NCBI GenBank assembly: GCA_005776395.1
Contig: SXPJ01000048.1
Span: 24,211 to 88,210, forward strand
Direction of reading: 5' to 3'
DNA from: Bdellovibrionales bacterium
Lineage (GTDB): Bacteria; Bdellovibrionota; FAC87; UBA2466
DNA: 64,000 nt
The notes under the pieces were generated by a model. The model was not told where the DNA came from and did not search any database. It was given only the letters and a program-made list of their open reading frames with translations. A program made the translations under genes and the position numbers. Positions 17,187 through 62,057 of the stretch are shown piece after piece (position 1 is the first letter of the stretch; each line of letters opens with the position of its first letter).

Positions 17187-18766
17187 TTTGTAATCTCCTT
17201 TGAAAACTTAGTTCTAGGTTCAAAATGATACCCTCCAAAAATCTCCTGCCAATAAAGTGCTTCAGCTAGAGAGTCGGGATCTCCCCAACACAGATAACCC
17301 GTTAGTGGGATTTCTCTAACTCTAAAACCCTGCTTAATTAAAACCTCAAAAACAGAATCAAGATACATCTCGCCATTAACTAAAATCTCCTGCTTTTTTA
17401 GTTCCTGGATTCCTTGAGCTAATATTTCAATATTTCGAAACCAAAAGGTCCCTACTAATAACGAATCTTTACTTGGATTTTTGGAGAGGGGTGACTTTAC
17501 CGATACTTTTTTAACTTGAGGATAGTCCCCCTGATTGTCAGATTCTACATAGGCAAAGGCCTTAGGATGAGAATCAGCTCCTGGATATCCTTTTATCGTA
17601 AAAATAGCTGCATCGCAGTCGGGGTGAGCCTTAAACCGATTCCATAATCTAGGATCTAAAACAATTCCATGATCACAGGAACTCACAATGACCTCTTTTT
17701 TAAGATCTAGCGCCGTTATTCCAAACTCCGTTGATAAAGCCTGGCCACTAGGCGTCTGTTTTAACGAAACAATCTTTTCCTTGGAGCCCGATAGGTAAGA
17801 CTTTACTGAATCTAAGGTTACAAGAACGGAAGTTTTACTTTTGGGCAATGTTTCCAATGCCCTCTGGTACATGGGAGTCCCTGAAATTGGAATGAAGGGC
17901 TTCGGACAGGAGGTCACTGAAGCAAATCGACTTCCTAGACCTGCCATGGGCATGAGAACTTGATCGACTTCACCTCTTTGCATTCCTAAAAACCTATTGT
18001 GATCTTTCAAGCTTTTTTCCCAATACTCAAAGATTCTTAAATCTTCAGGAGTTCCCCATTGAAAAAAACCAGGAATTTCAAATACCCGGACATGAGCGTT
18101 AGATCTCATTTGAAGTAAGGACTGAACAGTAAGACTCGAGTAGTACTCGCCATTGAGCTGTATCTTATTCGTAATCTGATACTCAATCGCCTCTCTTAAA
18201 AGCTTTGCACTTTTGAAATAGTAGCCCCCTGAAGAGGCAAATTCCTGTTCTCTGTTCTCTGTGAAAGAGCCCTTCTCTTTAACCTCAACTACCCGTTCCC
18301 CCTCCATTCGAGAGTACGCGTACTGTAAAGGGCTTCGATAATGAGCATGATAGCCTCGATAGGAGATGACACAAGCATCACATTCGGTCTCTCTTACAAA
18401 GTTAGAGAAACGAACTCCATCCCAAACCATCGCGTAATCACAATAGCTTAAAAAAACAGGGGCCTCAGGATCTAGAAACTCCATTGCTTTTAATGCAGCA
18501 AAGCCCGGTCCCTGATTATGTTTCTCAATAAAAATCTGTTTTCCTTGAGGTCTCTCCTTCGATAGAACGGTAGGCAGCTCAGTGTTTTTATGATTCTCAG
18601 CCATGACAAAAAAACAGGGCCAGCTCTCAGGAAAGTTCTCCAAAAGTCGCTGAATCATTGGAGTTCCATTGATCGGGATAAGCGGCTTAGGTTCAAGATA
18701 GCCCGCGGCCTGATAACGGGTCCCTTGTCCCGACATCGGAATAAGTAGTTGGATCTTTTTATCCAT
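17183..18766 (-). CDS. Tandem-domain sugar-phosphate nucleotidyltransferase (two RmlA/GalU-like NTP-transferase domains)
   Basis: LLIPMSGQGTRYQ...PKPLIPINGTPMIQ and a second copy LMPMAGLGSRFAS...PKPFIPISGTPMYQ, each like the G-x-G-T-R-(L) nucleotidyltransferase N-terminus. Confidence 0.65.
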   Translation of the reverse strand: MDKKIQLLIPMSGQGTRYQAAGYLEPKPLIPINGTPMIQRLLENFPESWPCFFVMAENHKNTELPTVLSKERPQGKQIFIEKHNQGPGFAALKAMEFLDPEAPVFLSYCDYAMVWDGVRFSNFVRETECDACVISYRGYHAHYRSPLQYAYSRMEGERVVEVKEKGSFTENREQEFASSGGYYFKSAKLLREAIEYQITNKIQLNGEYYSSLTVQSLLQMRSNAHVRVFEIPGFFQWGTPEDLRIFEYWEKSLKDHNRFLGMQRGEVDQVLMPMAGLGSRFASVTSCPKPFIPISGTPMYQRALETLPKSKTSVLVTLDSVKSYLSGSKEKIVSLKQTPSGQALSTEFGITALDLKKEVIVSSCDHGIVLDPRLWNRFKAHPDCDAAIFTIKGYPGADSHPKAFAYVESDNQGDYPQVKKVSVKSPLSKNPSKDSLLVGTFWFRNIEILAQGIQELKKQEILVNGEMYLDSVFEVLIKQGFRVREIPLTGYLCWGDPDSLAEALYWQEIFGGYHFEPRTKFSKEITK

Positions 18767-19712
18767 GAGGTAACTCTCTTTGCTGGCGTAATTTTTCAGT
18801 GGGCAAATCTCTAATAACGGCTCTTATCTCTTTGGGAACCTCTTGGAAGTTGGGTGAAAGCCGATAAAGAATCGCTGTCGCAAGCCATAATTCTGCCATA
18901 TCCTTATCTTTCGAGATTGAAGACACAGGAAAGAAAACCTCGCCTGAAGCTGTAGGTTGCAAAACCCTATCTAGTCTTTCAGAAAAGACTGCTACATCGG
19001 GAAAAAAACACCTAAAAGGCATTGGGTTAGCGGCAAAAAGCTGAAAGAGTTTATCAAAGTTTGGGATCTCAGTAAGCAATGAATAGAGTCCAGAGTAATT
19101 AAAATCTTTGCAGAACTCTTTTTCCAGAGACTCCCATTCGGTAATAATAGAATCGTCATCTCCATGAAGAATGATCCCATGGCTCTCAAGAAAATAGATT
19201 CCAGCATCTCCCTTGATCTGTTTCGAAAGAACCCAACCTGGACGACAGGCCTCTACAAAAATAGTTTCTCTTTGAGTGTTGTTTTTTAACCACCCGATGA
19301 CTCGAGTTCGATCCATGTTAAATTCGTGATAGAAAAGCAATGATGCTAAAGAGTGAAAGTGAAGAACATACTTTTTAGGTAACAAAGCATGAAAGCCGGT
19401 CTCCATTGAGGCCCTTCCAAGGCCGTCCCCTAGGAGAGTTGTTTCTTTAATTAGTTTCGCGTAATTTTCTTCGGCCTCTGATTCTTTCCAAGACTCACTT
19501 TTTAGAACCTGAGCCATGGTTTTGTAATCAACATGAGCTATCCCTGTATTTTCAGTGACTCTATCCAAACGAAAGCCGGTGGCTTTAATCCAAAGGGTAT
19601 TTTTATCCTCTTTGATTGAAATATTTCCTCCAGCCCCTTGAGTCCAGACTGGAATACGAGCGCCTATTTTTTGGCACAAATAGCTTAATTCTATTTCTAT
19701 TTTTTTAGTCAT
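18759..19712 (-). CDS. Class II aldolase/adducin-family protein (MtnB / AraD-like)
   Basis: GAGGNISIKEDKNTLWIKATG and HFHS motifs resemble the class II aldolase N-terminal fold and its zinc-binding His pair. Confidence 0.5.
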   Translation of the reverse strand: MTKKIEIELSYLCQKIGARIPVWTQGAGGNISIKEDKNTLWIKATGFRLDRVTENTGIAHVDYKTMAQVLKSESWKESEAEENYAKLIKETTLLGDGLGRASMETGFHALLPKKYVLHFHSLASLLFYHEFNMDRTRVIGWLKNNTQRETIFVEACRPGWVLSKQIKGDAGIYFLESHGIILHGDDDSIITEWESLEKEFCKDFNYSGLYSLLTEIPNFDKLFQLFAANPMPFRCFFPDVAVFSERLDRVLQPTASGEVFFPVSSISKDKDMAELWLATAILYRLSPNFQEVPKEIRAVIRDLPTEKLRQQRELPHG

Positions 19713-20389
19713 TGCAGTAACATTTCTAGTTCATTCAAAGAGTTGATTACTTTCACATCACTTGGAATGGTATCTTTTTGAATCAATTTTCTAAATTCTG
19801 TTGTCAAAACACTTTGCATTCCCAATTTCAGTGCTGGAGCTATATCAGTTTCTAAGCTGTCTCCCACCATCACGCACTCATTGGGTTTGCAACCTAACTT
19901 TTCAAGAGCAGATTGAAAAAGACTTAAGTGGGGTTTTTCCACCCCCATTTCTTCTGAGGTAATAATAGCAGGAAATAAACTCCCAGTAGGATCTATCACT
20001 CTTAGTTTAATCATCTGGGTTCTAATATTTTCATTAGTTAAAATTATTTTAGGCAATTTACCTAATCGTCCCTCAAAAAGTTTTTGGCGTTCCAAGCTTC
20101 TCCATTGCTCACCAATATGTTCAGCTATTTTTTTTTCATAGGCCTGCATCAGATCTAAAACTGCACCATGAGAATATTGATTATTTGTATCGAGTAACTG
20201 CTTGAAATAGAGAATTCGATTTCTAGCCCCCACATGCCCCTCTCCCAATCGAGACTTAATTATCTGACGCGCTATTAAAAATTCCTCAGAGAGGGGATCG
20301 ATTCCTATCGCTTTAAGAGCATAAGCATAGGCAGCCTCCGCGTCATAAAGCGTGTCATCTAAATCTAAAATAAGGCAGGTCTTTGTCAT
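19709..20389 (-). CDS. HAD-superfamily hydrolase/phosphatase
   Basis: ILDLDDTLYD (motif I DxDxT), later K and DD motifs. First gene of the operon. Confidence 0.8.
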   Translation of the reverse strand: MTKTCLILDLDDTLYDAEAAYAYALKAIGIDPLSEEFLIARQIIKSRLGEGHVGARNRILYFKQLLDTNNQYSHGAVLDLMQAYEKKIAEHIGEQWRSLERQKLFEGRLGKLPKIILTNENIRTQMIKLRVIDPTGSLFPAIITSEEMGVEKPHLSLFQSALEKLGCKPNECVMVGDSLETDIAPALKLGMQSVLTTEFRKLIQKDTIPSDVKVINSLNELEMLLQ

Positions 20390-24252: not shown

Positions 24253-25452
24253 TTAAGGAATATCCATCCTAACTTTTCCAGCAGCAATCGGTTTAGCGGC
24301 AAACTTAACTTTCAACTCATCGGGTCCGTTACATGCCATTTCAGTTGCTTTAGAGAACTTAAAAGCGTTGATATTGTTAACGCAAGCTTCTAATGGCCCT
24401 TCAATAAGCAAAGTACCGTCCGAATTTTCAACGTGAAGCCATACCTCTTCTGCATCAATCACAAGATCTTTAACGCACTCTCCACCTTTAAGAGTAGACC
24501 AGCCTTTTGAAATTACCTGTCCACTGAATTCAGCATCTTTCCAAGCAATAGCAACAAGAATACTATTTTCTTCACTTCGAGAGTTGCAAATGTCCATCAT
24601 TGAACGAGCTACATAAGCTTCATTAGTTTTAAAATGATGCCCATATTCTCCAGAGGTCGGAAGTGCCTCTTTTTGGAAATACTCCATTTTCAATTTATTT
24701 AACGAACAGTCCATAATTTCAGCATCTGGATGATTAAACCCATCATAATCATTGGTGCACAAGGGGACATTACCTCGCCATTTATGAGATCCATTAGATG
24801 AAGTAGCGAAATAGAGAATTTCACTAGCCTCCTCTTTTCGATCTACCTCAAAACATTTTCCAGGTTTAGCCATCAACCAACCATTGACTGTGGTTTTAGC
24901 ATCGCTCGATCTCTTTTGGGCAGACGAAATAAAAATATCTTCCGAGGTATCATTACAAAACTTTACACCCCCTCCTACCTTAGTCGCATCGGAAAGTTTA
25001 AATTCGATCTTAGGAATTTCTTCTCCTGTGGCAGTTCTTAAATTAGCTATTGAAAACTCTTTAAAGGGCCTAATCTCCTGTTCCGATTCATTACAGGAAA
25101 TCGTACCCGCATTCTCTAAGTTATAAATATCGACTGTGTTTATACAAAGCTTGGTCTCACCTAGCCATTGATATATTTTAGAGAATGATTGGGCGTAAAC
25201 TAGAATTTTATCCCCTGATATTGGAAATGACAGCTCTGAGCATTTATTCGGTTCAATTCCCCACCAACCTCGAGCCATTAAATTGGCATTCTCATCTGGC
25301 TTATAAGCTACTGAAATAAATATTTTTCCTTCATCTCTATTGCAAAAATTTATCTTTGTTTCAATGTTAGAGTCTGTTGTTGCAGCCAGTAACAGAGGAG
25401 TATAAAACCCCACACCAAGAAGCGCCAATCCAAAGACAATCTTTTTTTTCAT
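24253..25452 (-). CDS. Exported protein with three Cys-bracketed ~110-aa repeats (DUF1036-like, tentative)
   Basis: Signal peptide MKKKIVFGLALLGVGF. Recurring C..D...IFISVAY....ARGWW.I.P.KC modules. Confidence 0.5.
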   Translation of the reverse strand: MKKKIVFGLALLGVGFYTPLLLAATTDSNIETKINFCNRDEGKIFISVAYKPDENANLMARGWWGIEPNKCSELSFPISGDKILVYAQSFSKIYQWLGETKLCINTVDIYNLENAGTISCNESEQEIRPFKEFSIANLRTATGEEIPKIEFKLSDATKVGGGVKFCNDTSEDIFISSAQKRSSDAKTTVNGWLMAKPGKCFEVDRKEEASEILYFATSSNGSHKWRGNVPLCTNDYDGFNHPDAEIMDCSLNKLKMEYFQKEALPTSGEYGHHFKTNEAYVARSMMDICNSRSEENSILVAIAWKDAEFSGQVISKGWSTLKGGECVKDLVIDAEEVWLHVENSDGTLLIEGPLEACVNNINAFKFSKATEMACNGPDELKVKFAAKPIAAGKVRMDIP

Positions 25453-25571
25453 GGTTAAACTCCCCAATAAAAATAGTTAAAACGACTCTAGAGAGAGGAG
25501 TAAAGCAAGCTGCATGCCATTTGAATTTTATTTTTATAACTGATAAAGAAAGGCTCGATTTTCCACTTCAT

Positions 25572-27197: not shown

Positions 27198-29105
27198 TTA
27201 AAAATAATAATTCAGAGAAAATTTTCCTTCATAGAAAGAAGAGTTCTCCTGGGAAGAGATAACTGCCTGAGTCATGAATCTTAATTCCCAGATCTGACTC
27301 AACGCTAACGACTGATTAAGTTGAAACTCAAAGAACTGAGCTCTTCGCTCCCTTTGAAAAAGATCCCATAACCAGCTCGACTGCAGCTGGATTTTATATT
27401 TTTCAAAAAGATAGATAATACTTCCCATTTGCCATTTAGGAATCACACGATATCTCAATCGAAAACTATTTCCGGCCTCTATCTGTGCGACCCCTAAACT
27501 ATAAAATATCGCCTTATTTTTACCCACCCCAATAGCTCCTCCACCTCCCAGATCGAAATGAAAAACCTGGCAGTGATTACAGGAGAGATCTTTCGGAGAC
27601 AATACTTCAAGATGAAATGTCCAAGAAGGATGTTTATCAAGATCGGCCAATGGAGACAGCGAAGTTAGAGACAAAATATGAATATTTTCAAACCTTAACT
27701 GATAACTCTTTAAATAATATCTCAGCGTTACCGCCGGAAAATCAACCTGAGAAAAAGGGGTATATCCCAGATCACTATTTAAAAGATCATGAAACGCAAA
27801 TTTGAATTGAATATCTTGAAAGAATTGGGTCTCAAGGAAAGGGTGTTGCCTATGTTCAACCCCAGAAGACAAGCCCAATCTATACGTGTTATGAGCTAAA
27901 TCGGGACGAGAAGAATCCATAAGATTTCCCATGGAGTCATTTTCTTGATTAGACTTCCCTAGAGTACTGCGCTGAACCAAAACCTGTCTAAAAAGTTTTT
28001 TCTCACTTTCATTTAACTCATTTTCTTTTTTCTTTTTAACGTAAAGAAGATAGTCCGATACTTCATCTAATACTTCTATATCACTGACCTCTTGGGGCGT
28101 TGTCTTATATGCAATAATGTTTTGAAAACTATTTTTTTGAGACCTCTCTAACTTCTCATAATTTCCCATCATCTTTTTTTGCAAAGACGGACGATACTTA
28201 ATATTTTTAATCGCACCCGAAATTGCAGAAACCTTTTTAATAGTTTCCCCCGGAATCACATAAATGGGAAAATCGGTCAATTCCCAATCAGGCTTAGCAA
28301 CTTCAAGAAATGCAAGTAATTGATAGGAACAGTTTTCATCTAAAAAGTAATAGTCAAAAAAACTATTAGTTTCGACCTCCCAAACATTTCTTATAAGTCG
28401 ATAGGTTTCCTCACGATTAAGATTTAACTCATACTCCCAAACATCTCGACTTTCATTGTTCACATATTCATTAACTTTAGCGTAATAGGGAAGGAGTGAA
28501 AATTGTCCTCGATACCCTCCAGTAAGTCCCAAATAGACAAACGCAAACCCATTTTCATCATTCTCTACTTGAGCCGCATAACTAATTCCCCAATCTAAAA
28601 GATCCTGTTTTTTTTGATTCTTCGATTTAGAGTTAATCCGCAAAAAGGTATGCCCAAACATAGATCCTGGGTTGTGGGGATAGGCGCTAGAAAAGACGAG
28701 AGTTACCGATTCAGGGTTAAGCTTATCCAAATACTCATTCAACTTAGAGCATAAGACATCTTTAGTTTTTAGCTTTAAGCCCTCTTTAAGAAAACGATAA
28801 CGTTCTGGAAAGGCACATTGAGGGTGCTGTTTCAATCGTCCCACTTCAATATCTTTTGACATAGCAGCAAGAGTTGCCTGCATTTCTAAGTAAGGATTGC
28901 TCTTACCCTCAGGAGAAAAAAAGAATTCACCTCCCTCAACTCGACTTCGGTACCCTCCCCAAAAACTTTTCTCATAATGAATAAGCCTCAGCCAATAAGG
29001 AGATTTGGCTAAAGTCTCTAATTCAGATTCAGGGGATAAGGTTCCAGTCAAAGAGGATTGAATACCGATCCCAATTAATATCAAGAGAATAAAATGCAAT
29101 CTCAC
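27198..29105 (-). CDS. DUF4105 domain-containing exported protein
   Basis: LAKSPYWLRLIHYEKSFWGGYRSRVEGGEFFFSPEGKSNPYLEMQATLAAM matches the DUF4105 core (WlrLlHY...FFls..G...P..El.Atl.a). Confidence 0.55.
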   Translation of the reverse strand: MRLHFILLILIGIGIQSSLTGTLSPESELETLAKSPYWLRLIHYEKSFWGGYRSRVEGGEFFFSPEGKSNPYLEMQATLAAMSKDIEVGRLKQHPQCAFPERYRFLKEGLKLKTKDVLCSKLNEYLDKLNPESVTLVFSSAYPHNPGSMFGHTFLRINSKSKNQKKQDLLDWGISYAAQVENDENGFAFVYLGLTGGYRGQFSLLPYYAKVNEYVNNESRDVWEYELNLNREETYRLIRNVWEVETNSFFDYYFLDENCSYQLLAFLEVAKPDWELTDFPIYVIPGETIKKVSAISGAIKNIKYRPSLQKKMMGNYEKLERSQKNSFQNIIAYKTTPQEVSDIEVLDEVSDYLLYVKKKKENELNESEKKLFRQVLVQRSTLGKSNQENDSMGNLMDSSRPDLAHNTYRLGLSSGVEHRQHPFLETQFFQDIQFKFAFHDLLNSDLGYTPFSQVDFPAVTLRYYLKSYQLRFENIHILSLTSLSPLADLDKHPSWTFHLEVLSPKDLSCNHCQVFHFDLGGGGAIGVGKNKAIFYSLGVAQIEAGNSFRLRYRVIPKWQMGSIIYLFEKYKIQLQSSWLWDLFQRERRAQFFEFQLNQSLALSQIWELRFMTQAVISSQENSSFYEGKFSLNYYF

Positions 29106-35284: not shown

Positions 35285-38200
35285 ATGGCAGCAGAGTTTA
35301 CACATCTACATGTGCACTCCAATTATAGTCTATTGGACAGCACGATTCGTATTGAAGATTTAGTTAAAACTGCTTCGAACGATAAAATGGCGGCCTTAGC
35401 TCTCACCGATCATGGCAATATGTTCGGAGCCCTAGACTTCTATCTCTATGCTAAAAAATATGGCCTTAAACCCATCCTGGGTTGTGAAGTCTATTTAGCT
35501 CCTGGAAATCGATTTCTCCGAGGTAATAATACCAGTGGAGATGAAGAGGTAGCCCCCTACTCCACTAGCCGTTCTGGAATGAACCACCTAATTCTTTTGG
35601 TTCAAAATGAAATCGGATACCAAAATCTTTGTAAACTAGTGAGCAGCGGATTTCTAGAGGGCTTTTATTATAAACCTCGAATTGATAAAGATATTTTAAA
35701 AGAACACTGTGAAGGACTTATAGCTACTTCAGCCTGCCTTAAAGGTGAGGTTTCAAATCTCTGTCTTCTCGGTGACATGGATCGAGCTAGAGAAGCCGCT
35801 ATTTTCTATCGCAATCTCTTTAAGGGAAATTTTTATTTGGAACTCCAACAAAATGGAATTCCCCAACAGATGTTGGTTAACCAACGCTTTCAAGAGTTAT
35901 CAAAAGAGTTGGGAATCCCGCTAATCGCAACTGCCGATTGCCATTACTTAACTCAAAAAGAGGCTTTTGCTCAGGAAGTTTTATTAGCAATCCAAACTGG
36001 GCGAACCCTAGAAGATCCCTCAGCCCAAAATATCGCAAGTGATGAGTTTTACTTTAAACCTCAAGCGGTAATGAAAGAAGAATTTTCCTACTGTCCTGAA
36101 GCCATTAATAACACCATGGCTATTGCTGAAAAATGTACCTTTGAATTTAAGTTTGATGATGAAAAAGGGAAAAAGATCTACCACTTCCCAAAATTTGACC
36201 CCCCCGATGGAAAAACAGCAGAGCAATTTATTATTGATTCAGCAAAAGCTGGTTTAGACCGAATCCTTTCTGAGAAAGAACAGATTGAAGGAAAAAAACT
36301 AACTTCGGAGCAGAGAAAAAAATATGATGATCGGCTTGAGAAAGAACTCAACGTCATCACCTCCATGGGATTTATCGGCTACTTCTTAATCGTTTCTGAT
36401 TTTATCGGCTATGCTAAAGATCATGGAGTCCCTGTCGGACCTGGTAGGGGTTCAGGTGCAGGTAGTTTGGTAGCTTACTGTCTTAGAATTACTGAACTTG
36501 ATCCCCTAGAACATGGACTTCTCTTTGAACGCTTTCTAAATCCGGAACGGATCTCTCTTCCCGATTTTGACGTCGATTTTTGCATGGATAAAAGAGACCA
36601 GATTATTAAGTATGTCGTTGATAAGTATGGCAAAGAGTGTGTCGCTCAAATTATCACCTACGGAAAACTTCAAGCTCGCGGAGTTATTCGAGACGTAGGC
36701 CGAGCCTTTGGAATGCCGGTCAGTGAAGTCGATAAGATAGCAAAGCTGGTTCCAGAGACGGTCAATATTACTTTAGATAAAGCATTCGAACAGGAATCAA
36801 GACTGAGAGATCTCACAGCCAATGATCCTAAGCTACATCATCTGTTCTCTGTATGCCGATCTTTAGAAGGATTGGCTCGTCATGCCTCTATCCATGCTGC
36901 GGGGATTGTAATTTCTAATCGGCCCATGGTCGAGCACTGTCCTCTTTATCGAGGGAAAAATGATGAACTGGTGATTCAGTTCGACATGAAAAAAGCTGAG
37001 GAGATAGGCTTAATCAAGTTCGACTTCTTAGGACTTAAGACCCTCACCTTTTTACAGTCAGCTGAGAGACTTGTTAATAATCGATATCCCGAAAATGAAT
37101 TTAGACTCTCTCATTTAGATTTAGCTAATAAAAAAATGTATGAGATGCTTTCAAAGGGGGACACCTTCGGAATTTTCCAGTTAGAAAGTTCCGGAATGCA
37201 AGATCTTCTCAAAAAGGCACGCCCTGACTGCTTTGCAGATATCGTAGCTATTATTTCTCTCTATCGTCCAGGCCCCATGGTGATGCTAGATGATTTTATC
37301 GGCCGTAAACACGGAACCATTCCTATTCAATATGAATTTGAAGAGCTGAGACCTATTCTGCAAGAAACTTACGGAATCATGGTTTATCAAGAACAGGTTC
37401 AGCAGATCGCAATGAAACTTGCTAGCTATACTGCAGGAGGGGCCGATCTTCTCCGTCGTGCAATGGGAAAGAAGAAGCCTGAAGAGATGGCAAAGCAAAA
37501 GACTGTCTTTTTGGAAGGGGCAGCTAAAAATAATCACGATCCTATTAAGGCGGAAAAACTTTTCGATCTGATGGCCAACTTCGCAGGTTACGGATTCAAC
37601 AAATCCCATGCAGCCGCTTACTCAGTGATCACCTGCCAAACAGCCTTTCTCAAAGCTCATTACCCTGTCGAATTTTATGCAACCCTGCTTTCAACCGAGC
37701 GTGAGAACACCGACAAGATCACAAAATATATCGCCGATGCTAAAAGGCATCATATCGATGTCCTTCCACCTGACATCAATGAAAGTGACACCGACTTTAC
37801 TGTACTCACCGAATCTCAAATTCGCTTTGGTTTAGGCGCTATTAAAGGGGTAGGACAGATTGCTATCGACTCTGTTTTAGAGGCACGAAAAAAGGGGGGC
37901 CCCTTCACGGATCTCTTTGATCTTTGCGCCCGTGGTAATACCCGTACCGTGAATAAGAGAGTCCTAGAAGCTTTTGTAAAAGCTGGCGCTTTAGATAGTT
38001 TTAAAATTCACAGAGCCTCTCTCTTTAAGGCAATCGATGAAGCCTTACAGATGGGCTCTGCCCTACAAAAAACCAAAGACGATCTGCAACCCTCCTTTTC
38101 TGATCTTTTGGGCCCAGAAGAAGACTCAAGCTTCACTCACAGAAAAGTTTCCTATCCTCATGAAACTCCATGGCCTAGACTTTATGAATTAAAATTGGAA

Positions 38201-38839
38201 AAAGAGACGATCGGATTTTTCGTCTCTGGCCATCCTCTTGACGATTTTTCTGAGGAACTTGAATGTTACACCACCACCTCTATCTCAGACTGTTTAACCT
38301 CTACGAGTTCTAAAGAGGTCTTTGTAGGCGTTGAAATAGTCTCTTCAAGAGAAATTATTACAAAACGCGGAGACCGAATGGCGTTTCTAACCCTCGAGGA
38401 CAAAACAGGACAGATTGATACTGTGGCCTTCTCAGATATCTATTTAGAGAACGAAACCCTCTTAAAAGCGGGAGAACCCATTTGGGTTAAAGGCCAAGTA
38501 GAGATCAATGAAGGTGGAGCTAAGCTAATTCTATCCAAAAAAGGGCACGCTAAAATCTTGCCTTTGCGTCATGCTTACGAGGCTATGGCTAAAGAGATTC
38601 ATCTCCACTTTGCAGTTGAAGAAAAAACCAATCTAAACCCTCAGACTTTAAACAAACTTCAAAACTATCTTAAAGCTATCGCTGATAAGAATGGATCTCC
38701 TCTATTTTTACATTTAAAAACCTCTAAACGCTCTGAAGCAGTGCTTCGTATGAAAGAGACTATTCCTCTTAATCGAGACACGATAAGCTTTATTAAAAAT
38801 ATTCTCCAAGAAGAAAGGATTCGACTTGAATTTAGGTAA
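35285..38839 (+). CDS. dnaE: DNA polymerase III alpha subunit
   Basis: FTHLHVHSNYSLLDS PHP domain, GPGRGSGAGSLVAY, LPDFDVDF, FNKSHAAAYS. 1184 aa. Confidence 0.95.
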   Translation: MAAEFTHLHVHSNYSLLDSTIRIEDLVKTASNDKMAALALTDHGNMFGALDFYLYAKKYGLKPILGCEVYLAPGNRFLRGNNTSGDEEVAPYSTSRSGMNHLILLVQNEIGYQNLCKLVSSGFLEGFYYKPRIDKDILKEHCEGLIATSACLKGEVSNLCLLGDMDRAREAAIFYRNLFKGNFYLELQQNGIPQQMLVNQRFQELSKELGIPLIATADCHYLTQKEAFAQEVLLAIQTGRTLEDPSAQNIASDEFYFKPQAVMKEEFSYCPEAINNTMAIAEKCTFEFKFDDEKGKKIYHFPKFDPPDGKTAEQFIIDSAKAGLDRILSEKEQIEGKKLTSEQRKKYDDRLEKELNVITSMGFIGYFLIVSDFIGYAKDHGVPVGPGRGSGAGSLVAYCLRITELDPLEHGLLFERFLNPERISLPDFDVDFCMDKRDQIIKYVVDKYGKECVAQIITYGKLQARGVIRDVGRAFGMPVSEVDKIAKLVPETVNITLDKAFEQESRLRDLTANDPKLHHLFSVCRSLEGLARHASIHAAGIVISNRPMVEHCPLYRGKNDELVIQFDMKKAEEIGLIKFDFLGLKTLTFLQSAERLVNNRYPENEFRLSHLDLANKKMYEMLSKGDTFGIFQLESSGMQDLLKKARPDCFADIVAIISLYRPGPMVMLDDFIGRKHGTIPIQYEFEELRPILQETYGIMVYQEQVQQIAMKLASYTAGGADLLRRAMGKKKPEEMAKQKTVFLEGAAKNNHDPIKAEKLFDLMANFAGYGFNKSHAAAYSVITCQTAFLKAHYPVEFYATLLSTERENTDKITKYIADAKRHHIDVLPPDINESDTDFTVLTESQIRFGLGAIKGVGQIAIDSVLEARKKGGPFTDLFDLCARGNTRTVNKRVLEAFVKAGALDSFKIHRASLFKAIDEALQMGSALQKTKDDLQPSFSDLLGPEEDSSFTHRKVSYPHETPWPRLYELKLEKETIGFFVSGHPLDDFSEELECYTTTSISDCLTSTSSKEVFVGVEIVSSREIITKRGDRMAFLTLEDKTGQIDTVAFSDIYLENETLLKAGEPIWVKGQVEINEGGAKLILSKKGHAKILPLRHAYEAMAKEIHLHFAVEEKTNLNPQTLNKLQNYLKAIADKNGSPLFLHLKTSKRSEAVLRMKETIPLNRDTISFIKNILQEERIRLEFR

Positions 38840-39947
38840 ACTGATTTTTTACAGTCTATTTTTCGTGAAACTTCTTTTTGCTGAAGGAGTTCCTTTTAAA
38901 GTTTCCTCCTCATCTCTTAATACGGCCCCCACAACCGCAGGGCAATCGATTGAAAATGGAGATCCAGAATCCACCCTTATTGATGAGCTGAAATATCTGG
39001 CAGTATCTAATTGGCTTCAAGACTACTTAAGTCAACGCTACAATCAGTTCGATAAATATGTAACCCCAGAATTCGCAGAAAAATATATTTTAGACTACAA
39101 AGTTTCTCGTACTGGAACCCCTTCAGGAGGGCTAGATCTCATAGGCCACTTAGATGGAGAGGCCCTTAAAAAATGGGTTCGTCTGGTTGATTCGAAATCG
39201 AAAGCTTCAAATCAAATCAAACCGCTATTTATCATTTCATCCCAGTTACCCGGATTAAGTATCTCACCTGGGGAGACAGCCCATAAGCTTAGAGACTCTT
39301 CTACAGCTCAGTTGCTATCTCAAATGACTCAGCAGCAACTTAATAAACTAAATGCCCATTTGAGCCCACTAGAAAGCTCTTTAAGTATAGAATCTCCGCC
39401 CAAGAACAGCTCTGAAATTCAAAGTCTTACATCACTAGCAAGAGAGCGAGGTCAGAGCCTAGTATTATGGGAATCCTTCTCTACCTGTCCCGGCTGTACC
39501 AATCCTAGATTCGACATCTTTTTGTATAATACACAAACTCAAAATATCTCTTTTGTCGTTGGAGATGACTTAGCTCTCTCTATGAAAGATTTAACAAACA
39601 CAGAACTCTTAAAGAGATCCCTTCTTCCCATTTTTCAGCAGTTTCAATCTGAACTGGAAAAAACCTTCTCCGAAGGATCCCTACAAGAAACCCCTTTCAA
39701 ACTCATTCTTGAAAATGTCGATTCCTATCGAGCTTTAAAAACTGCAGAAGCTGAACTCAGCCGTGGTAACGGTTTTAGCAGCCCCATTTTCAAAAGGGTT
39801 GGAAAAAAAACAGCCGAGTATGAAGTTAAATCTTCCCTTTCCATCGAGGAACTCGCCGTAAGAGTACAATCGACCGTACTGCCTGGTTTTAAAACCGAGG
39901 TTTCTAAAGTCGATAGTTCAACTTTAGTTGTGAGATATTCCAAATGA
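38826..39947 (+). CDS. Exported hypothetical protein
   Basis: Signal peptide. No recognisable domain. Overlaps the dnaE stop by 14 nt. Confidence 0.5.
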   Translation: MNLGKLIFYSLFFVKLLFAEGVPFKVSSSSLNTAPTTAGQSIENGDPESTLIDELKYLAVSNWLQDYLSQRYNQFDKYVTPEFAEKYILDYKVSRTGTPSGGLDLIGHLDGEALKKWVRLVDSKSKASNQIKPLFIISSQLPGLSISPGETAHKLRDSSTAQLLSQMTQQQLNKLNAHLSPLESSLSIESPPKNSSEIQSLTSLARERGQSLVLWESFSTCPGCTNPRFDIFLYNTQTQNISFVVGDDLALSMKDLTNTELLKRSLLPIFQQFQSELEKTFSEGSLQETPFKLILENVDSYRALKTAEAELSRGNGFSSPIFKRVGKKTAEYEVKSSLSIEELAVRVQSTVLPGFKTEVSKVDSSTLVVRYSK

Positions 39948-40163: not shown

Positions 40164-41147
40164 ATGCAATACACTCAATTTTTGTCCCTTGTTTTAGCCT
40201 TAAGTCTTCTCACTCAATGTGCGGGGCTCAACCCCTTTGGCTCCGACTCAACTGAAAAAATAGAGTCTGAAGATAAAGGCCAAGCCGAAAATTCTAATAG
40301 TCCTCCAAGGTATACCTGGGAAATAAATGAATCTTTAAAAAATTCTCTTAAGAAAAAAATTGTGGTTTTAAACTTCCACAACAAGACCCAATTCGGCGGA
40401 AAAGAGCTGGGAGAGTATGCGGCTAGTACCGTTCAAGACACCATTTCAAAAATGCCCGAATTTGTCATCGTAACCCAAGAGGAGATCAACCCTGACGAAG
40501 CCATTATTTTTGAGGATGGCAAATACAACATGAAACAGGTTTTTGAAAGGGCTCGCGCTCGAGGGGTTTCGGCTGTGGTGATGGGTTCAATCGATGATGT
40601 TAAGATTCAAGAAAAAGGGGATGAGATTGGTTTGTTCCGAACTCGCTACCACTCGGTCACTGCAAAAATTAAGTTCCAACTTCATGACGCCACTAATGAA
40701 AAGATCTTAGTTTCCAAAGATTCTACCGCAGAAGTTATTGAGGAACACACTCGATTTCTAGCTAGCCGTACGATTGAAAGCTATGATGCCTCTCGAGCCG
40801 AAGGAGCTGTCTCAAAAGCTATTAATAAAGTCCTTCCCCTCTTCTCTCAGTACGCTAAAAGAATCTCGTGGGTAGGTAAAATTGTAAAAATCGAAATGAA
40901 CCGTTTCTTTATTAATGCCGGAGAGCCTACTGGAATCACCCAAGGACAGCTTCTTAAGGTATTTGGCTCGAGTGAACCTATTATTGATGATGAATCTCAA
41001 CAATTACTCGGAATGGCCCCCGGACGTTTCAAAGGTATTTTGAAAGTAGTAGACTACTTTGGAAATGATGGAGCTGTCGCCATTGTTCACGCCGGTGCAG
41101 GTTTTCAGGAAAAAGACAGAGTTGAAATCTACAGCCCTCCGCACTAA
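40164..41147 (+). CDS. Lipoprotein (CsgG/LpoB-like fold suggested; tentative)
   Basis: Lipobox LLTQC. KKIVVLNFHNKTQ...VQDTISKMPEFVIVTQEEIN resembles the iAVl.F.N.t ... R..l..il.E pattern. Confidence 0.45.
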   Translation: MQYTQFLSLVLALSLLTQCAGLNPFGSDSTEKIESEDKGQAENSNSPPRYTWEINESLKNSLKKKIVVLNFHNKTQFGGKELGEYAASTVQDTISKMPEFVIVTQEEINPDEAIIFEDGKYNMKQVFERARARGVSAVVMGSIDDVKIQEKGDEIGLFRTRYHSVTAKIKFQLHDATNEKILVSKDSTAEVIEEHTRFLASRTIESYDASRAEGAVSKAINKVLPLFSQYAKRISWVGKIVKIEMNRFFINAGEPTGITQGQLLKVFGSSEPIIDDESQQLLGMAPGRFKGILKVVDYFGNDGAVAIVHAGAGFQEKDRVEIYSPPH

Positions 41148-43072: not shown

Positions 43073-43834
43073 CTACTCACATACCCTACCACCTGCGATT
43101 GCAGTAACCATTCTCATCACACCGGCGTTATGGCGCATTGTTCTAACTGTATGGCAACCATTCATAATGGCAGGTATTTGGCATTCCAAAGGGAAATTTA
43201 GAACGGGGTCCATTGATATCAAGCCTATCCTGAACATCGTGCTCGTCGCCTCATTAGAATCTCGAATCGCTTCTTGAGCTTCTTGACCCCCTTGAGTTAA
43301 TAGACCCCTAAAGCCGTTCTGCAATCCGGCATTTACAATCCTCGTTATTCCACCTACCGCTCTTTCGCGGGGATTCAGAAAAGATTTCTTGGCCCCACCT
43401 AAACTCGTGGAAAAACTCAAGTTCATACTGCCCACAGCCGGAACAGTCCCGCCCCCGAGAGAAACCCCCAACTTAGAAGAATCGCAACCTGTCAAAATAT
43501 CGCCAATTTTTTTGAACACCTGCGAGTAGACTGTGGCGTGCGCCTTTGCCACAGGCGTTGCATTGATATCATTCTTAATCGTATCAAGTCTTCTTACGAG
43601 AGTATTAATCAATGCTCTGGAATCGACCGGCTGTGGAGCGAGAGCGTTGACTGGCATCTGAACCCTGGCGACCTCTCTTATCGTATGGAGGGCTAAATTA
43701 GCTGTAACGTTTGCCCCCTCAAAAAGTGACCTGGTCAGATCAAAAAGGGATTGGACGGCGGCAACCTGCCCTGGCTGACGATTGCCTCCCAGGACATCCT
43801 GTACGACATTCCTAATGAAGTTGATTCTATCCAC
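43073..43834 (-). CDS. Hypothetical protein, GC-rich (~50%), no signal peptide, no recognisable domain
   Basis: 253-aa ORF, compositionally distinct from its neighbours. Confidence 0.5.
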   Translation of the reverse strand: MDRINFIRNVVQDVLGGNRQPGQVAAVQSLFDLTRSLFEGANVTANLALHTIREVARVQMPVNALAPQPVDSRALINTLVRRLDTIKNDINATPVAKAHATVYSQVFKKIGDILTGCDSSKLGVSLGGGTVPAVGSMNLSFSTSLGGAKKSFLNPRERAVGGITRIVNAGLQNGFRGLLTQGGQEAQEAIRDSNEATSTMFRIGLISMDPVLNFPLECQIPAIMNGCHTVRTMRHNAGVMRMVTAIAGGRVCE

Positions 43835-58391: not shown

Positions 58392-61106
58392 CTAATCTTC
58401 TAAATGGCTGACCAATACCTGAATCTCAAACCTGCCCTTTAGAGTAGTTCCAGTCACCTTATGGGTCGCATAGAGACGATTGAAATTATTAACAGAGGCC
58501 TTACCCAGATAAATACTTGGAAGTGAAAGTTGAAAATTAATACCCTTCTGTTCTAGTTCTCTCATAAGATTTCCACCAATCATATTGCTGGTTTCATTAA
58601 GACAATCAAAAAGATCTAATTTCCTTCCTTCGGCTCCTAAATTATCAGCTTTAATCGTGTTTTGAAGCAATGCTTTGGCTAAATTAAGTTCGTAGCTCAA
58701 AAATAACGTCATATCGGGTTCAGTCTCAATAGGCGACGAGCAAGAAATAATTGCAGTGACCCCACCTTCGAATCCAATGAGATCGGACTGTGAAGAGAGG
58801 GGATGGTACGTTAGAGACAACTCAACCGATGCAAATTGAATTTGGCACTGCTTCTTAGCCTCATCTAAAATAGTTCGAGTGTTAAATGAAACTCTCTCAG
58901 GTAATGACAGGGGAATCTGCATTTCCTGAGGCAGCCTAAAGTCCCCTACCAAATAAAAGAGAAAACCGTCGACTTCAACAGAGTAACAATAGGTGGGCTT
59001 ACCTAAAATCCTTAATGGCTGTCCCCAACCGAAATATGAAAGTGGATAGAGAGCGCGAATAGAAACCCCATCTGAAGTACTGCGTTCGGAAATTTCTATT
59101 CCCATATGTTTTCCAAATTCAGTTAAGGCTTCAATATGGTATTTTATAGAGACCCTATTTTTATTACCGGTAAGTCTCGGCAAAATACATTTTTCAAAGG
59201 TATCCTCAGGAACAAGTAGCCCCGCATATCCTATTCGTTCTCCATTAAACTGAATTAAAGTTCCATAGGGTTGAGAGAGTGCTTTTTGAAAATCAAACTC
59301 AGGCAAAATTTTAATTTTTTTCCCTGTCGCAGGAATTCCAAGAATTTTTTCGAGACTACTCAAATGATATTTCCCAAGAAAAAAGCAACCCTTCTGTTCA
59401 TTTTGAGTGGAAGCCCAGATAGCTTGTAGAATTCTAGCCTCAAGCCTTCTAACCTGAACCATTGAATAATGATTGTTTTCACGAAAAGCTTCACAGAGTG
59501 ACTTAATGCATATTCCACCCTCTACTATTAGATCAATTTGAGCATTATCTAGCTCAGCCTTCTCCTCAGCCACCAATTTTAAAATCTCTTCGTAATGGTG
59601 ACATAAACTTGTGATTCGACTCCAATTTAAAAATCCCACCACCCCTTTGATACTATGAACTAAACGATAGGCTTCATAGGCTGCGCTCACACGTTTCTCT
59701 TTGGAGATGGCCTGTAAACTAAGAGTTAAACGATCCAGATATTGTGACAACTCATCCAAGAGCAGAGTTTTTTCTTCCTCTTCCGCGGTAGAATAATCTC
59801 CGGAAGAGACCAAGTTAGGCGAGATCGCTAATGAAAAATCTTCGTTCAACGGAATAAGAAGTTCTATTGCTGTTCCAAAAGAGGTACTTGATAAAACTCT
59901 AATCTCTCCTCCTATAGCTTCAATTCCTCTCTTAACAATATCAAGTCCTAAACCTCTTCCCGAGATAGTATCGGCAGAATTTCGTGTCGAAAAACCTGAA
60001 TAAAAAACGAAAGGCGCCAACTCTTCACTTAATAAAGTTTGGGCCTGCTGTTCAGAGATAATCCCCTTCATTAAAGCCTTTTCCCTGATTCTCTCAAAAT
60101 CAAAACCCGAACCATCATCACTAATTACAAGATGTAATTCATTCTCCAAGAAAGCAGCTCTTATCTTAATGGTTCCACGAGCATTCTTTCCTTTTCGTTC
60201 TCGCTCTAATGGGGCTTCAATACCATGATCTACGGCATTTCTAAAAAGATGAAGCATCGGTTCGTAGAGATGATTTAAAAGAGATTTATCTAAATAGAGC
60301 CAAGCTCCCTGCGTGACAAATTGAATCTCTTTCCCCTGATCTTTAGCAATCTCCTGAACAAGCTTATGAGCTGGAATAAACAATATCTCAAGCGGCTCCG
60401 ATTTCATCTGTCGCATCATTCGCTTTACACGTTTAATTTCAGCCCGCATCTGAGCTCGTGCTTTTGGGCCGGTAAAAAGACGACTTTCTAACAATTCAAT
60501 GTTTTTTAATCGACTATAAACCATCTCTAATTGAGAGGCATAGACCCTTATTTTTCGAGGTTCTAGAATGGCCTGACGACTTGAGATCTCTTCAAGAAGT
60601 TCAGGAGAAGAGGCATTTAAACTAAAAAACACCTTAAAGGAACCATATCGAGTTTCAATAGGGCACACAAGACATGAACCCAAATCAGTGGAAAGAGAAT
60701 AATTATTTTGAAGCCCACTTCCCTTCTTTAATTCGCTCTGAAAATCCTCTGAAGCAAACTGTTTCTCAAGTGAACTAGCTAAAGACTCAAAAATAACCGA
60801 CAAAGTTAAGGCTAAAGAATCATTTTCGCTTTCCTCTTGAATATTAAGTTGATGGGAAAAAAGTTTCAGCGCAGGGACATCAATCCCCACTCCGATAAAA
60901 CCCTTAAATTCTCCGATCACTTTTGCATCTAACCAGTAAGCAAACCTCTCCTCCCCAGCTAAAGGAGTCATTTCACCAAAAAGAACTTCAGATTTTAATA
61001 ACGGGCAAAGAGCCTCAATTAAAACGCGTGTAACTAGAGTGTAAATCGGAAACTCTTTGGCGGTTTCCAGAACTCGATAATCTAGTTTTAATACCGATGA
61101 ACTCAT
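58392..61106 (-). CDS. CheA-like histidine kinase with atypical domain order (kinase core, then HPt, then CheX/CheC-like C-terminal domain)
   Basis: HLFRNAVDHGIE...DDGSGFD...GFSTR...SGRGLGLDIVK (CheA HATPase_c). HPt-like ...YRLVHSIKGVVGFL. C-terminal ETSNMIGGNLMRELEQKG...SLPSI (CheX/CheC-like). Confidence 0.75.
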   Translation of the reverse strand: MSSSVLKLDYRVLETAKEFPIYTLVTRVLIEALCPLLKSEVLFGEMTPLAGEERFAYWLDAKVIGEFKGFIGVGIDVPALKLFSHQLNIQEESENDSLALTLSVIFESLASSLEKQFASEDFQSELKKGSGLQNNYSLSTDLGSCLVCPIETRYGSFKVFFSLNASSPELLEEISSRQAILEPRKIRVYASQLEMVYSRLKNIELLESRLFTGPKARAQMRAEIKRVKRMMRQMKSEPLEILFIPAHKLVQEIAKDQGKEIQFVTQGAWLYLDKSLLNHLYEPMLHLFRNAVDHGIEAPLERERKGKNARGTIKIRAAFLENELHLVISDDGSGFDFERIREKALMKGIISEQQAQTLLSEELAPFVFYSGFSTRNSADTISGRGLGLDIVKRGIEAIGGEIRVLSSTSFGTAIELLIPLNEDFSLAISPNLVSSGDYSTAEEEEKTLLLDELSQYLDRLTLSLQAISKEKRVSAAYEAYRLVHSIKGVVGFLNWSRITSLCHHYEEILKLVAEEKAELDNAQIDLIVEGGICIKSLCEAFRENNHYSMVQVRRLEARILQAIWASTQNEQKGCFFLGKYHLSSLEKILGIPATGKKIKILPEFDFQKALSQPYGTLIQFNGERIGYAGLLVPEDTFEKCILPRLTGNKNRVSIKYHIEALTEFGKHMGIEISERSTSDGVSIRALYPLSYFGWGQPLRILGKPTYCYSVEVDGFLFYLVGDFRLPQEMQIPLSLPERVSFNTRTILDEAKKQCQIQFASVELSLTYHPLSSQSDLIGFEGGVTAIISCSSPIETEPDMTLFLSYELNLAKALLQNTIKADNLGAEGRKLDLFDCLNETSNMIGGNLMRELEQKGINFQLSLPSIYLGKASVNNFNRLYATHKVTGTTLKGRFEIQVLVSHLED

Positions 61107-61108
61107 AA

Positions 61109-61492
61109 TTAAGCAGCCTCCTCACTTGATTGAATAGGGATATTAATTTTGAGAATCAATTGACGAAGAGACTCTTTATCAAAAGGCTTCTTTAAAAAAC
61201 CGTTAGATCCAGATTGGCTTGCAGCCAGTTCATTGGCTAGGGTTGCGGCTGAACTCACCATGACAATCCAAATCTTTCTGTTTTCATAACGAATGGCTCG
61301 TAACACAGAAAGACCATCCAATTCCGGCATGACTAGATCCAAAGTCACAAGATCAGGTTTCTTTTCGGCCACTAGTTTTAGAGCTTCATAGCCATTAACA
61401 GCCTCTCCAATGACTTCATGCCCCAACTCCTTAAAATAACGACCCAATTTTATTCGAATACTTGAAGAATCATCAGCAATAACAACTTTCAT
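61109..61492 (-). CDS. CheY-like single-domain response regulator
   Basis: MKVVIADDSSSIR...DLVTLDLVMPELDG...KKPF receiver motifs (D-D...D...K). ATG at 61492 preferred over GTG at 61540. Confidence 0.8.
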   Translation of the reverse strand: MKVVIADDSSSIRIKLGRYFKELGHEVIGEAVNGYEALKLVAEKKPDLVTLDLVMPELDGLSVLRAIRYENRKIWIVMVSSAATLANELAASQSGSNGFLKKPFDKESLRQLILKINIPIQSSEEAA

Positions 61493-62057
61493 GGATATTC
61501 CTTCCTGAGTACCCCTAGTTATCGGAAAACTTAAAGACACACTGAAGCCGTTGTTAATACCGGGCGACTTGGTGCGGTCTACTTATGAATCAATACGCTT
61601 TGTCGCCTCTGACAAATTAGAGTGATGGGATAAAATAAAGTCTTTTCATAAAGCATCTTAATAAAATGGAAGCTATGACATTACGGGCCAGGAATCATAA
61701 GGGGAGACTTATGGAAATCGAGGAACAACTGCATCATTTGAATGGCATCGTAAAGATTATGAACAGAGCAAATGACAGGGGAGCATAAAAAATGGAAGCT
61801 AGAAGAGAACAGGGAGGTACAGAATTTTTTGGGGAAACAAAATCCCAATGCAGTAAGCTCTAAAATTTTATATGTGATTTTCTCTCTTTAGTGGAACATT
61901 TTTATTACCTGGTCTAGGTTCTCTAGGAGACTCGTCACAATCGTTAGCTCGTTCTCTTGCAGAACAAAGAGCACAAGGTTCACGGTAAACTTCAAGATGA
62001 AAAAGTTACGGGTATAGGAGCTATACTATGCCCTAGCGAATTAGATTATGTTTTGAA

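Follow-up and report, generated by a model that had tools for sequence, protein, structure and literature searches.

The window, the whole stretch of 64,000 nucleotides analysed here, contains two adjacent open reading frames on the minus strand, one of 904 amino acids (58392..61106) and one encoding a CheY-like receiver (61109..61540; ORF listing of the window). The mechanical receiver ORF begins with a GTG at 61540 (143 aa) and is longer than the gene predicted by the gene callers (Table 1). An earlier note on this DNA had placed a single-domain receiver immediately upstream of the kinase in the same operon, in a span (58392-61492) that corresponds exactly to the receiver gene plus the kinase gene. 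This arrangement was borne out, as the receiver stop codon (61109-61111) and the kinase ATG (61104-61106) are separated by 2 nt. Each gene has a candidate ribosome-binding site, that of the receiver being the RBS-like sequence GGAAGGA ahead of its ATG, and the sequence predicts that the two genes are translationally coupled. Scans for consensus promoters and terminators around the operon scored no better than shuffled sequence and revealed no convincing promoter. The same two-gene unit is conserved at the loci of related proteins, with housekeeping genes alongside.

Table 1. Features of the receiver-kinase operon, with positions in the window and residues of the 904-aa protein.
Feature	Position	Strand	Remarks
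Presumed promoter/regulatory region of the operon	61493..62057	(-)	Non-coding stretch upstream of the receiver, ~565 nt
Receiver gene, single-domain CheY-like	61109..61492	(-)	127 aa from ATG at 61492 (gene callers)
GAGGAGG, putative ribosome-binding site of the kinase gene	61117..61123	(-)	Read from sequence; within the end of the receiver gene, 10 nt upstream of the ATG
Gene for 904-aa CheA-derived kinase/phosphatase (predicted)	58392..61106	(-)	CheX'(N)-P3-P4-Hpt-CheX(M)-CheX(C)
N domain, residues 20-175, predicted CheX fold	60582..61049	(-)	E107-x2-A110, without catalytic Asn
P3 dimerization hairpin, residues 181-235	60402..60566	(-)	Opens with K-I-R-V...L-E motif; ~9 residues shorter than in canonical CheA
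P4, CheA-type ATP-binding kinase domain, residues 236-421	59844..60401	(-)	N, G1 and G2 boxes invariant
P1-type Hpt, five helices, residues 435-567	59406..59804	(-)	
His484 codon, predicted phospho-accepting His	59655..59657	(-)	Context RLVH-SIKG
M domain, residues 578-729, predicted CheX fold	58920..59375	(-)	E663, P688 and G693 invariant; Lys666 at the catalytic Asn position
C domain, residues 743-900, CheX	58407..58880	(-)	Complete catalytic consensus
Catalytic motif D834-x3-E838-x2-N841-x21-P863 (DCLNETSNMIGGNLMRELEQKGINFQLSLP)	58518..58607	(-)	From translation; followed by conserved G868

The Pfam Response_reg profile covers residues 19-129 of the 143-aa receiver ORF (E = 3.3e-25). The receiver carries an acidic pocket (D7/D8), a phospho-acceptor (D52) and K102, all invariant when the receiver is aligned with CheY of E. 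coli and with two of its orthologues, as well as Ser at the T87 position and Phe at the position of CheY Y106. The receiver fold and the equivalents of D12/D13, D57, T87 and K109 are therefore present in a protein of 127 aa that has no second or output domain. The best NCBIfam models for the receiver are CheY types, which score far under their cutoffs (76.7 versus 200 bits and 61.6 versus 189). Across the whole window there is a single receiver and a single CheA-type P4.

Kinase core and phosphotransfer domain

Pfam detected HATPase_c (residues 284-421, E = 1.2e-14), Hpt (448-541, E = 2.6e-6) and CheX (798-869, E = 4.5e-8), in this order, in the 904-aa protein. Sequence searches of the PDB matched residues 227-421 to the end of P3 and the P4 of T. 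maritima and E. coli CheA (E = 1e-40), residues 448-531 to CheA P1 (E = 1.5e-6) and residues 780-871 to a CheC-like protein (E = 0.008). HATPase_c and the PDB matches identify P4 as CheA-type, in agreement with the kinase core described in the earlier note, and the Hpt domain lies C-terminal to the HATPase core as stated there. The Hpt (435-567) follows P4 (236-421) in all 25 aligned members of the family, an order different from that of canonical CheA. The N box of P4 comprises H286, N290, D293, H294, G295 and E297, the G1 box D330-D331-G332-x-G334, and the G2 box G383-R384-G385-L386-G387.

The two P3 helices span residues 190-208 and 214-232 in the structure model. From the IRV motif on, the family profile is collinear with canonical CheA P3, and residues K185 and R187 are invariant in the family alignment. 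Pfam H-kinase_dim matched none of the 25 members; this domain often goes undetected in CheAs, and P3 is poorly conserved (PMC10782961). His484 aligns with the phospho-accepting histidines of T. maritima CheA P1 (RALHTLKG) and R. sphaeroides CheA3 P1 (RAVHTFKG), and H484, K487 and G488 are invariant in the 25 sequences. A linker of ~13 residues (422-434), modelled with low confidence, joins P4 to the Hpt domain and calls for caution as to whether His484 may reach the ATP site in cis or in trans. The pTM of the structure model is 0.46, so its inter-domain geometry is unreliable. The protein is predicted to be soluble, based on sequence and structure prediction. We rejected the possibility of a hybrid HisKA kinase, as neither HisKA nor Response_reg matched the 904-aa protein or any of the 25 members.

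CheX-fold domains and their conservation

The earlier note had also recognised a CheX/CheC-like domain at the C-terminus, quoting the motif ETSNMIGGN, which we locate at residues 838-846 of the 904-aa protein. The assignment to CheX is sound and the catalytic consensus is complete; the claim of a single such domain did not stand, because structure modelling predicts three CheX folds (N, M and C). The two further domains, the shortened P3 and the absence of P5 had been overlooked. The published CheX catalytic consensus is D/S-X3-E-X2-N-X21-P plus an adjacent Gly (PMC12887009). In the window protein, the C domain matches it and is the predicted CheY~P phosphatase site, whereas M and N keep the Glu and lack the Asn. 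The corresponding motif of M there is E-x2-K-x21-P (E663, K666, P688).

Several comparisons support a CheX fold for the M domain. Its topology in the structure model is that of the CheX fold, its profile matched CheX 3hm4 in the PDB collinearly across 117 columns (E = 0.18), and hhalign aligned M with C over the active-site helix (E = 5e-5). Pfam CheX matched 7 of 19 isolated M domains (best 6.6e-7), the window's own M not being among them, and in one relative (P0252) the Pfam CheX match falls on M (611-695). The sole non-family match of the combined M and C profile (P0259) was spurious, being a kelch/beta-propeller protein. The N domain lies just N-terminal of P3, in the position held in canonical CheA by the CheY-docking P2. 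CheX folds that, like this one, are beyond detection by sequence methods may hide in 'unannotated' parts of signalling proteins.

The full-length architecture was found again in ~32 clusters with 40-100% identity from independent assemblies (NCBI, JGI, ENA and Logan), a recurrence far beyond chance. The proteins are collinear, 884-912 aa long and invariant in their catalytic boxes. The family is small and occurs in a single uncultured lineage. In a search with DnaE, all matches above 63% identity were MAGs, and cultured genera of Desulfuromonadia type followed at ~50%. At least one complete E-x2-N is present in 17 of 25 members, in C only, in M only or in both, and the remaining 8 have it in neither domain. 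The complementary pattern between M and C suggests that at least one active site has been kept by selection. The extended motif D-x3-E-x2-N-x21-P-x4-G is complete in the C domain throughout the subclade of the window protein, this protein included. Three loci (L004, L006 and L100) have no complete motif and still keep the receiver pair, while the two lineages that lost the adjacent receiver also lack the motif. As the C-domain catalytic Asn/Glu varies across the family and the receiver pair is retained at these three loci, phosphatase activity cannot by itself explain why the CheX folds have been kept.

Probable absence of receptor coupling and proposed function

CheA is held to be unique among histidine kinases in having no sensor domain of its own and relying on P5/CheW coupling to chemoreceptor arrays. 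As the earlier note had stated, the window contains no MCP or CheW gene: none of its 350 stop-to-stop segments of at least 50 aa is MCP- or CheW/P5-like, the MCP probe being one conserved Tsr hairpin, with limited sensitivity. Likewise, no CheW/P5- or MCP-like genes were detected in the 6-10 kb flanks of 20 family loci. The neighbourhood search covered 64 kb of this genome, and MCP, CheW and flagellar genes may exist elsewhere in it. A P5 profile, which recovered 87 of 88 canonical CheAs, matched none of 32 family proteins, so a canonical CheA with an overlooked P5 was rejected. This result and the confirmed Hpt clearly rule out the outcome that the earlier note had named as fatal to its reading, an only CheW-like C-terminus and a wrong HPt assignment. 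The absence of P5 implies that the module is not receptor-coupled, and the description 'chemosensory-like' holds for its CheA-derived ancestry only. Without P5 and a nearby CheW or MCP gene, the input is presumably not a chemoreceptor array.

We propose that the two genes probably form a self-contained two-component module that derives from a CheA-CheY-CheX system and has been freed from chemoreceptor arrays. The kinase dimer would autophosphorylate His484, and the co-translated receiver would then accept the phosphoryl group on its Asp52. The C-terminal CheX domain would then put Glu838 and Asn841 into the receiver active site and hydrolyse the acyl phosphate. As both steps would take place on the same protein, receiver~P would be made and destroyed on one scaffold, and the signal would be short-lived and tunable. 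The N and M domains keep the CheY~P-binding Glu (E107 and E663) without the water-positioning Asn, and their sequences indicate that they are most likely non-catalytic docking or regulatory sites for the receiver or receiver~P. Overall, the module resembles a kinase/phosphatase switch that is complete in itself and has no connection to chemoreceptors. The 'self-resetting' behaviour suggested in the earlier note may reasonably be expected of the window protein; it is not a family-wide rule, as E-x2-N is complete in 17/25.

Alternatively, the CheX folds could be mainly non-catalytic modules for receiver binding, scaffolding or oligomerisation that replace P2 and perhaps P5, with phosphatase activity incidental and the kinase constitutive or allosterically controlled. 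The CheC-like fold plays such a role in FliM and FliY. We nevertheless consider this unlikely, because every member of the subclade of the window protein retains a complete C-domain consensus, as does this protein, because the complementary M/C motif in 17/25 members suggests selection for an active site, and because both receiver-less lineages have lost the motif too. It is also conceivable, although we regard it as decidedly unlikely, that this is the first CheA-type (P3-P4) kinase to work without P5, CheW and chemoreceptors in which the CheX fold has been repurposed, one catalytic copy resetting the partner receiver and two Asn-less pseudo-phosphatase copies sensing the phospho-receiver and feeding back on the kinase. 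If true, it would represent a kinase/phosphatase cycle that runs autonomously, generating pulses or integrating CheY~P levels, and would add a new class of input domain to two-component systems. Very unlikely, in our estimate, is a kinase in which degenerate N and/or M domains bind, but do not hydrolyse, either a phosphorylated CheY-like protein belonging to a different pathway or the receiver~P that the kinase itself produces, and switch P4 allosterically, resulting in cross-pathway integration or product feedback (pulse or oscillator). The CheY~P-contacting Glu retained without the catalytic Asn in N and M is consistent with such sensing, as are the lack of any other candidate sensor domain in the kinase and the location of N beside P3, from where conformational signals could reach P4; however, the case is purely inferential, the window has no second receiver, and a CheX fold as allosteric input is without known precedent.

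Bipartite CheAs exist (PMC10782961) and our inspection covered 64 kb of the genome, so the kinase could be one part of a split CheA, still receptor-coupled within a normal chemosensory array through a P5/CheW-containing partner encoded elsewhere (compare R. sphaeroides CheA3/CheA4). This appears highly improbable given that both halves of known bipartite systems have CheW domains and share one operon (PMC10782961), that the 20 loci have no CheW/P5- or MCP-like gene within 8-10 kb, and that the receiver and kinase genes are conserved as a pair with housekeeping genes as neighbours. The unusual architecture and metagenomic origin, and nothing more, would suggest an artefact in the form of a chimera created during assembly, of separate cheX, cheA and hpt genes joined by a frameshift, or of a pseudogene undergoing decay; we consider its probability negligible, as it is refuted by the conservation of the family, with ~32 clusters, independent assemblies and invariant catalytic boxes.

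Comparison with known systems

The kinase shares with canonical CheA (E. coli and T. maritima, P1-P2-P3-P4-P5) the P3 hairpin, a P4 of ~35-38% identity with all ATP-binding boxes, and a P1-type Hpt with HxxKG; it differs in its permuted order, with the Hpt ~13 residues after P4, and in lacking P2 and P5. The CheA core has been defined as P1, P3, P4 and P5, and a 2023 survey found P5 in 100% of 13,673 CheAs and P3 always with P4 and CheW (PMC10782961). The family described here breaks both rules, that of P5 in every CheA and that of P3 never without P4 and CheW, and keeps every catalytic residue, thus offering a natural experiment on a receptor-free CheA core. Its predicted combination of kinase, phosphotransfer domain, substrate-binding pseudo-phosphatases and phosphatase on one chain would also be a compact unit in which to study the balance of receiver phosphorylation and dephosphorylation.

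Known CheA-phosphatase fusions likewise combine a CheA core and a CheC-clan phosphatase domain in one polypeptide, and they have been proposed to act on CheY both as kinase and as phosphatase. They keep the canonical core with CheW/P5, and the phosphatase follows CheW where the order is tabulated, whereas the window kinase lacks P5, has the Hpt after P4 and three predicted CheX folds (one N-terminal), and has no MCP or CheW gene nearby. Literature searches turned up no relevant description of a CheA without P5 or of a histidine kinase with a 'CheX domain'. Compared with stand-alone CheX (T. maritima 1xko, B. burgdorferi 3hzh, D. desulfuricans 3hm4 and V. vulnificus), the CheX folds have 10-20% sequence identity and differ in being three copies fused to a kinase, two of them without the catalytic Asn. 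A paper on CheX of Campylobacterota deals with the stand-alone protein.

According to the survey's summary of 2008 work (PMC10782961), R. sphaeroides CheA3 unites a P1 phosphodonor and dephosphorylation of the cognate CheY in one CheA-family protein, as we propose for the window kinase. In that summary, its phosphatase region consists of degenerate CheA domains rather than CheX, and CheA3 has P5, is devoid of a functional kinase domain and depends on CheA4 together with a cytoplasmic array of receptors. Hybrid kinases of the ArcB/BarA/TorS type also carry an Hpt C-terminal to the HATPase, but their autophosphorylation site is a histidine in HisKA/DHp and their relay runs through a receiver within the protein. 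The window kinase, whose core is CheA-type, has neither a HisKA domain nor an internal receiver. Matches of NCBIfam TorS/BarA hybrid-kinase models were limited to the last 40-60 residues of the HATPase segment.

A CheA-derived kinase and its receiver

The region 58392-61492, described in the earlier note as a receiver followed by a kinase, corresponds exactly to two co-directional minus-strand genes. Pfam assigned Response_reg to the smaller ORF, consistent with the proposed single-domain receiver directly upstream in the same operon, and its 127-residue product was the gene-caller result on three independent contigs. A gap of 2 nt separates the receiver TAA (61109-61111) from the kinase ATG, and GAGGAGG sits 10 nt 5' of that ATG, thus the genes are translationally coupled. 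The ~565 nt upstream of the receiver gene (61493-62057), presumably regulatory DNA of the operon, contain no convincing ORF; one gene caller set a 37-residue gene there, and consensus promoter scans of this region performed no better than on shuffled sequence.

Pfam matches in the kinase are ordered HATPase_c (284-421), Hpt (448-541) and CheX (798-869), confirming the claims that the Hpt region is C-terminal to the ATPase core and that the protein ends in a CheX/CheC-like domain (ETSNMIGGN, residues 838-846). The best NCBIfam models for residues 233-420 are CheA equivalogs, with scores far under full-length cutoffs because the match is limited to the core. A PDB sequence search matched the P3-end/P4 (dimerization and ATP-binding) region of CheA (E 1e-40), CheA P1 (Hpt; 1.5e-6) and a CheC-like protein (0.008). 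Residues 181-235 are collinear with canonical CheA P3, starting at its hallmark IRV...L(D/E) motif, and form a hairpin ~9 residues shorter.

We assign the middle (M) of three predicted CheX-fold domains on four lines of sequence evidence. It is collinear with CheX 3hm4, at a weak profile match (E 0.18); hhalign aligns it to the C-terminal (C) domain across the active-site helix (E 5e-5); Pfam finds CheX in 7 of 19 isolated M domains (best 6.6e-7; that of the window is not among them) and on the M domain of P0252, a 40% identical family protein; and M and C share the spacing E-x2-X-x21-P-x4-G. The architecture is CheX'-P3-P4-Hpt-CheX-CheX, CheX' being an N-terminal (N) copy without the catalytic Asn. 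A profile of P5, the CheW-like coupling domain, built from 88 canonical CheAs and recovering 87 of them, gave no match among 32 family proteins with the cutoff relaxed to E<=10, and Pfam CheW matched no family member.

Features of the window (nucleotides) and of the 904-residue kinase (residues)
Feature	Position	Strand	Remarks
Receiver ORF	61109-61540	minus	ATG at 61492, 127-aa product
Kinase ORF	58392-61106	minus	904 aa
N domain	residues 20-175		alpha/beta
P3 helical hairpin	residues 186-232		
P4 ATP-binding domain	residues 236-421		
Linker	residues 422-434		~13 residues, low-confidence
Hpt five-helix bundle	residues 435-567		
M domain	residues 578-729		alpha/beta
C domain	residues 743-900		alpha/beta
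AAA_14/DUF4143 ATPase	3394-4572	minus	
Two small overlapping ORFs	6114-6356, 5864-6232	minus	
tRNA	6470-6543	minus	
404-aa protein	24253-25467		two DUF1036 stretches
635-aa protein	27198-29105		DUF7843, Lnb_N, DUF7840
Pfam-less ORFs	593-1816, 2136-3122, 38826-39947, 40164-41147, 43073-43834		

Catalytic residues and the phosphatase motif

Invariance was scored across 25 family members (41-85% identity to the window protein). All conserve the P4 N box (H286, N290, D293, H294, G295, E297), G1 (D330 D331 G332 x G334) and G2 (G383 R384 G385 L386 G387), as well as the Hpt motif H484-x-x-K487-G488. H484 aligns with the established phospho-accepting histidines of Thermotoga maritima CheA P1 and R. 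sphaeroides CheA3 P1. The receiver retains equivalents of CheY D12/D13, D57, T87 (as Ser) and K109, with Phe at the position of Y106.

CheC/CheX/FliY phosphatases share the consensus D/S-X3-E-X2-N-X21-P with a conserved Gly after it; its Glu is the CheY~P-binding residue, and its Asn places the attacking water (PMC12887009). The C domain matches it exactly (D834, E838, N841, P863, G868). The M domain has E663 (family-invariant), P688 and G693, and Lys in place of Asn; in the N domain E107 is present and Ala replaces Asn.

Family-wide, the complete E-x2-N motif is distributed between M and C in a complementary pattern, with at least one complete site in 17 of 25 members. It occurs in C only (the window clade and family proteins P0014 and P0019-21), in both (P0010-13), in M only (P0015, P0022, P0025, P0028, P0029) or in neither (P0016-18, P0023, P0024, P0026, P0027, P0030). 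Both lineages without an adjacent receiver, at loci L005 and L091/L092, lack a complete motif in either M or C, L091/L092 carrying E838G in a protein 76% identical to that of the window. Locus L090 (77% identical) retains both motif and receiver. The receiver partner and phosphatase site may have been lost jointly, in two independent events only.

A family confined to an uncultured lineage

A word-indexed search recovered 32 clusters with the full-length architecture (41-100% identity), named 'Hpt domain-containing protein', 'ATP-binding protein' or 'hypothetical protein' and originating from Deltaproteobacteria, Proteobacteria or unclassified 'bacterium' MAGs; beyond these, only canonical CheAs matched, through P4, at ~20-29% coverage. 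An exhaustive HMM search of 1.84 billion representatives with an M+C profile returned eight proteins (one full-length family member, six fragments and one spurious match, a kelch protein that we rejected), indicating that the tandem module is limited to this family. By DnaE comparison the source organism falls in an uncultured clade: matches of at least 63% identity come from MAGs only, one labelled Bdellovibrionaceae, and cultured Deferrisoma, Geomonas and Geoalkalibacter share ~50%.

Sixteen further family loci were taken from JGI/ENA metagenomes. Of the 15 loci having upstream DNA, 12 carry the receiver directly before the kinase, at a gap of -8 to +20 nt; according to a gene table, the P0014 locus also has it there. 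A prs-rplY-pth-ychF-glycosyltransferase block adjoins all well-covered loci, which indicates vertical descent of the kinase locus rather than mobility. At L004, the P0023 locus, four to five AAA_14/DUF4143 genes (1-5350) directly precede the receiver-kinase pair, and the kinase is separated from the conserved GT2-ychF block by a SprT-like/DUF2786 gene, a VapB/PIN pair and HutD (9288-12131); this otherwise syntenic site seems open to insertions.

In a 2023 survey of 13,673 CheAs, P1, P3, P4 and P5 form the universal core, CheW occurs in 100% of sequences, and P3 always accompanies P4 and CheW (PMC10782961). CheC/CheX fusions were limited to F1 CheAs of Leptospirae, for which a dual kinase/phosphatase role was suggested (PMC10782961). 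As that data set comprised MiST-classified CheAs of RefSeq genomes, P5-less MAG relatives would fall outside its sampling. The 904-residue protein is clearly derived from CheA, but without P5 and with a permuted Hpt it lies outside CheA as now defined. The survey's passages on R. sphaeroides CheA3 describe a known bifunctional kinase-phosphatase which, unlike our protein, has P5, lacks an active kinase and uses degenerate CheA domains as its phosphatase region (PMC10782961). The ArcB/BarA/TorS hybrid kinases share a C-terminal Hpt, but use HisKA and an internal receiver, neither of which Pfam finds here. All component folds, and a precedent for kinase-phosphatase fusion, are already known. What is new is that P5 has been lost, that Hpt and P4 are permuted, that three CheX folds occur together, the N-terminal one cryptic, and that the family, with its conserved receiver partner, is confined to one small uncultured lineage. 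The family is narrow. A conserved, catalytically intact P5-less CheA would surprise chemotaxis and two-component specialists and offer them an experimentally tractable subject.

Proposed mechanism and other genes of the window

The protein probably works like a CheA-plus-CheX pair. A P3-mediated dimer would autophosphorylate His484 on the Hpt tethered behind P4, and the phosphoryl group would pass to receiver Asp52. In the final step, Glu838 and Asn841 of the C domain would hydrolyse receiver~P, by analogy with the B. burgdorferi CheX-CheY3 complex. Since N and M retain the CheY~P-contacting Glu and have lost the Asn, they would most plausibly dock receiver(~P); N occupies the position of P2, the CheY-docking domain of canonical CheA. 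We consider this scheme, including its independence of receptors, the probable one. It appears unlikely that the three CheX folds serve chiefly for docking or scaffolding and contribute negligible catalysis, the C domain carrying the exact consensus, and still less likely that the degenerate copies are inputs sensing the phospho-receiver.

The earlier note had seen no MCP or CheW gene in the window; neither the window nor any of 20 family loci contains an ORF resembling CheW/P5 or an MCP. With P5 missing from the protein, and CheW and MCPs from these loci, kinase control is not expected to come from a receptor array, and a split, receptor-coupled CheA is highly improbable. An artefact is ruled out by the family evidence.

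A single receiver and a single CheA-type P4 are encoded in the window, whose other Pfam-annotated genes have housekeeping and metabolic functions only. Pfam gave no hit at E<=1e-5 for five ORFs (253-407 aa), two of which come right after dnaE (35285-38839). A minus-strand cluster (14428-20389) appears to encode an uncharacterised pathway for sugar nucleotides or phosphosugars: a 687-residue protein (sole Pfam domain phosphoribulokinase/uridine-kinase at 392-573; N-terminal 390 residues unannotated) is followed by a GT2 glycosyltransferase, a MobA-like NTP transferase (527 aa), a class II aldolase and a HAD hydrolase. GC content is 0.44-0.46 across the first 6 kb and ~0.39-0.42 elsewhere. The slightly GC-richer, ORF-poor region 3394-8029, whose overlapping ORFs are a candidate DUF4160/DUF2442-type pair, may be the leftover of an element integrated at the tRNA.
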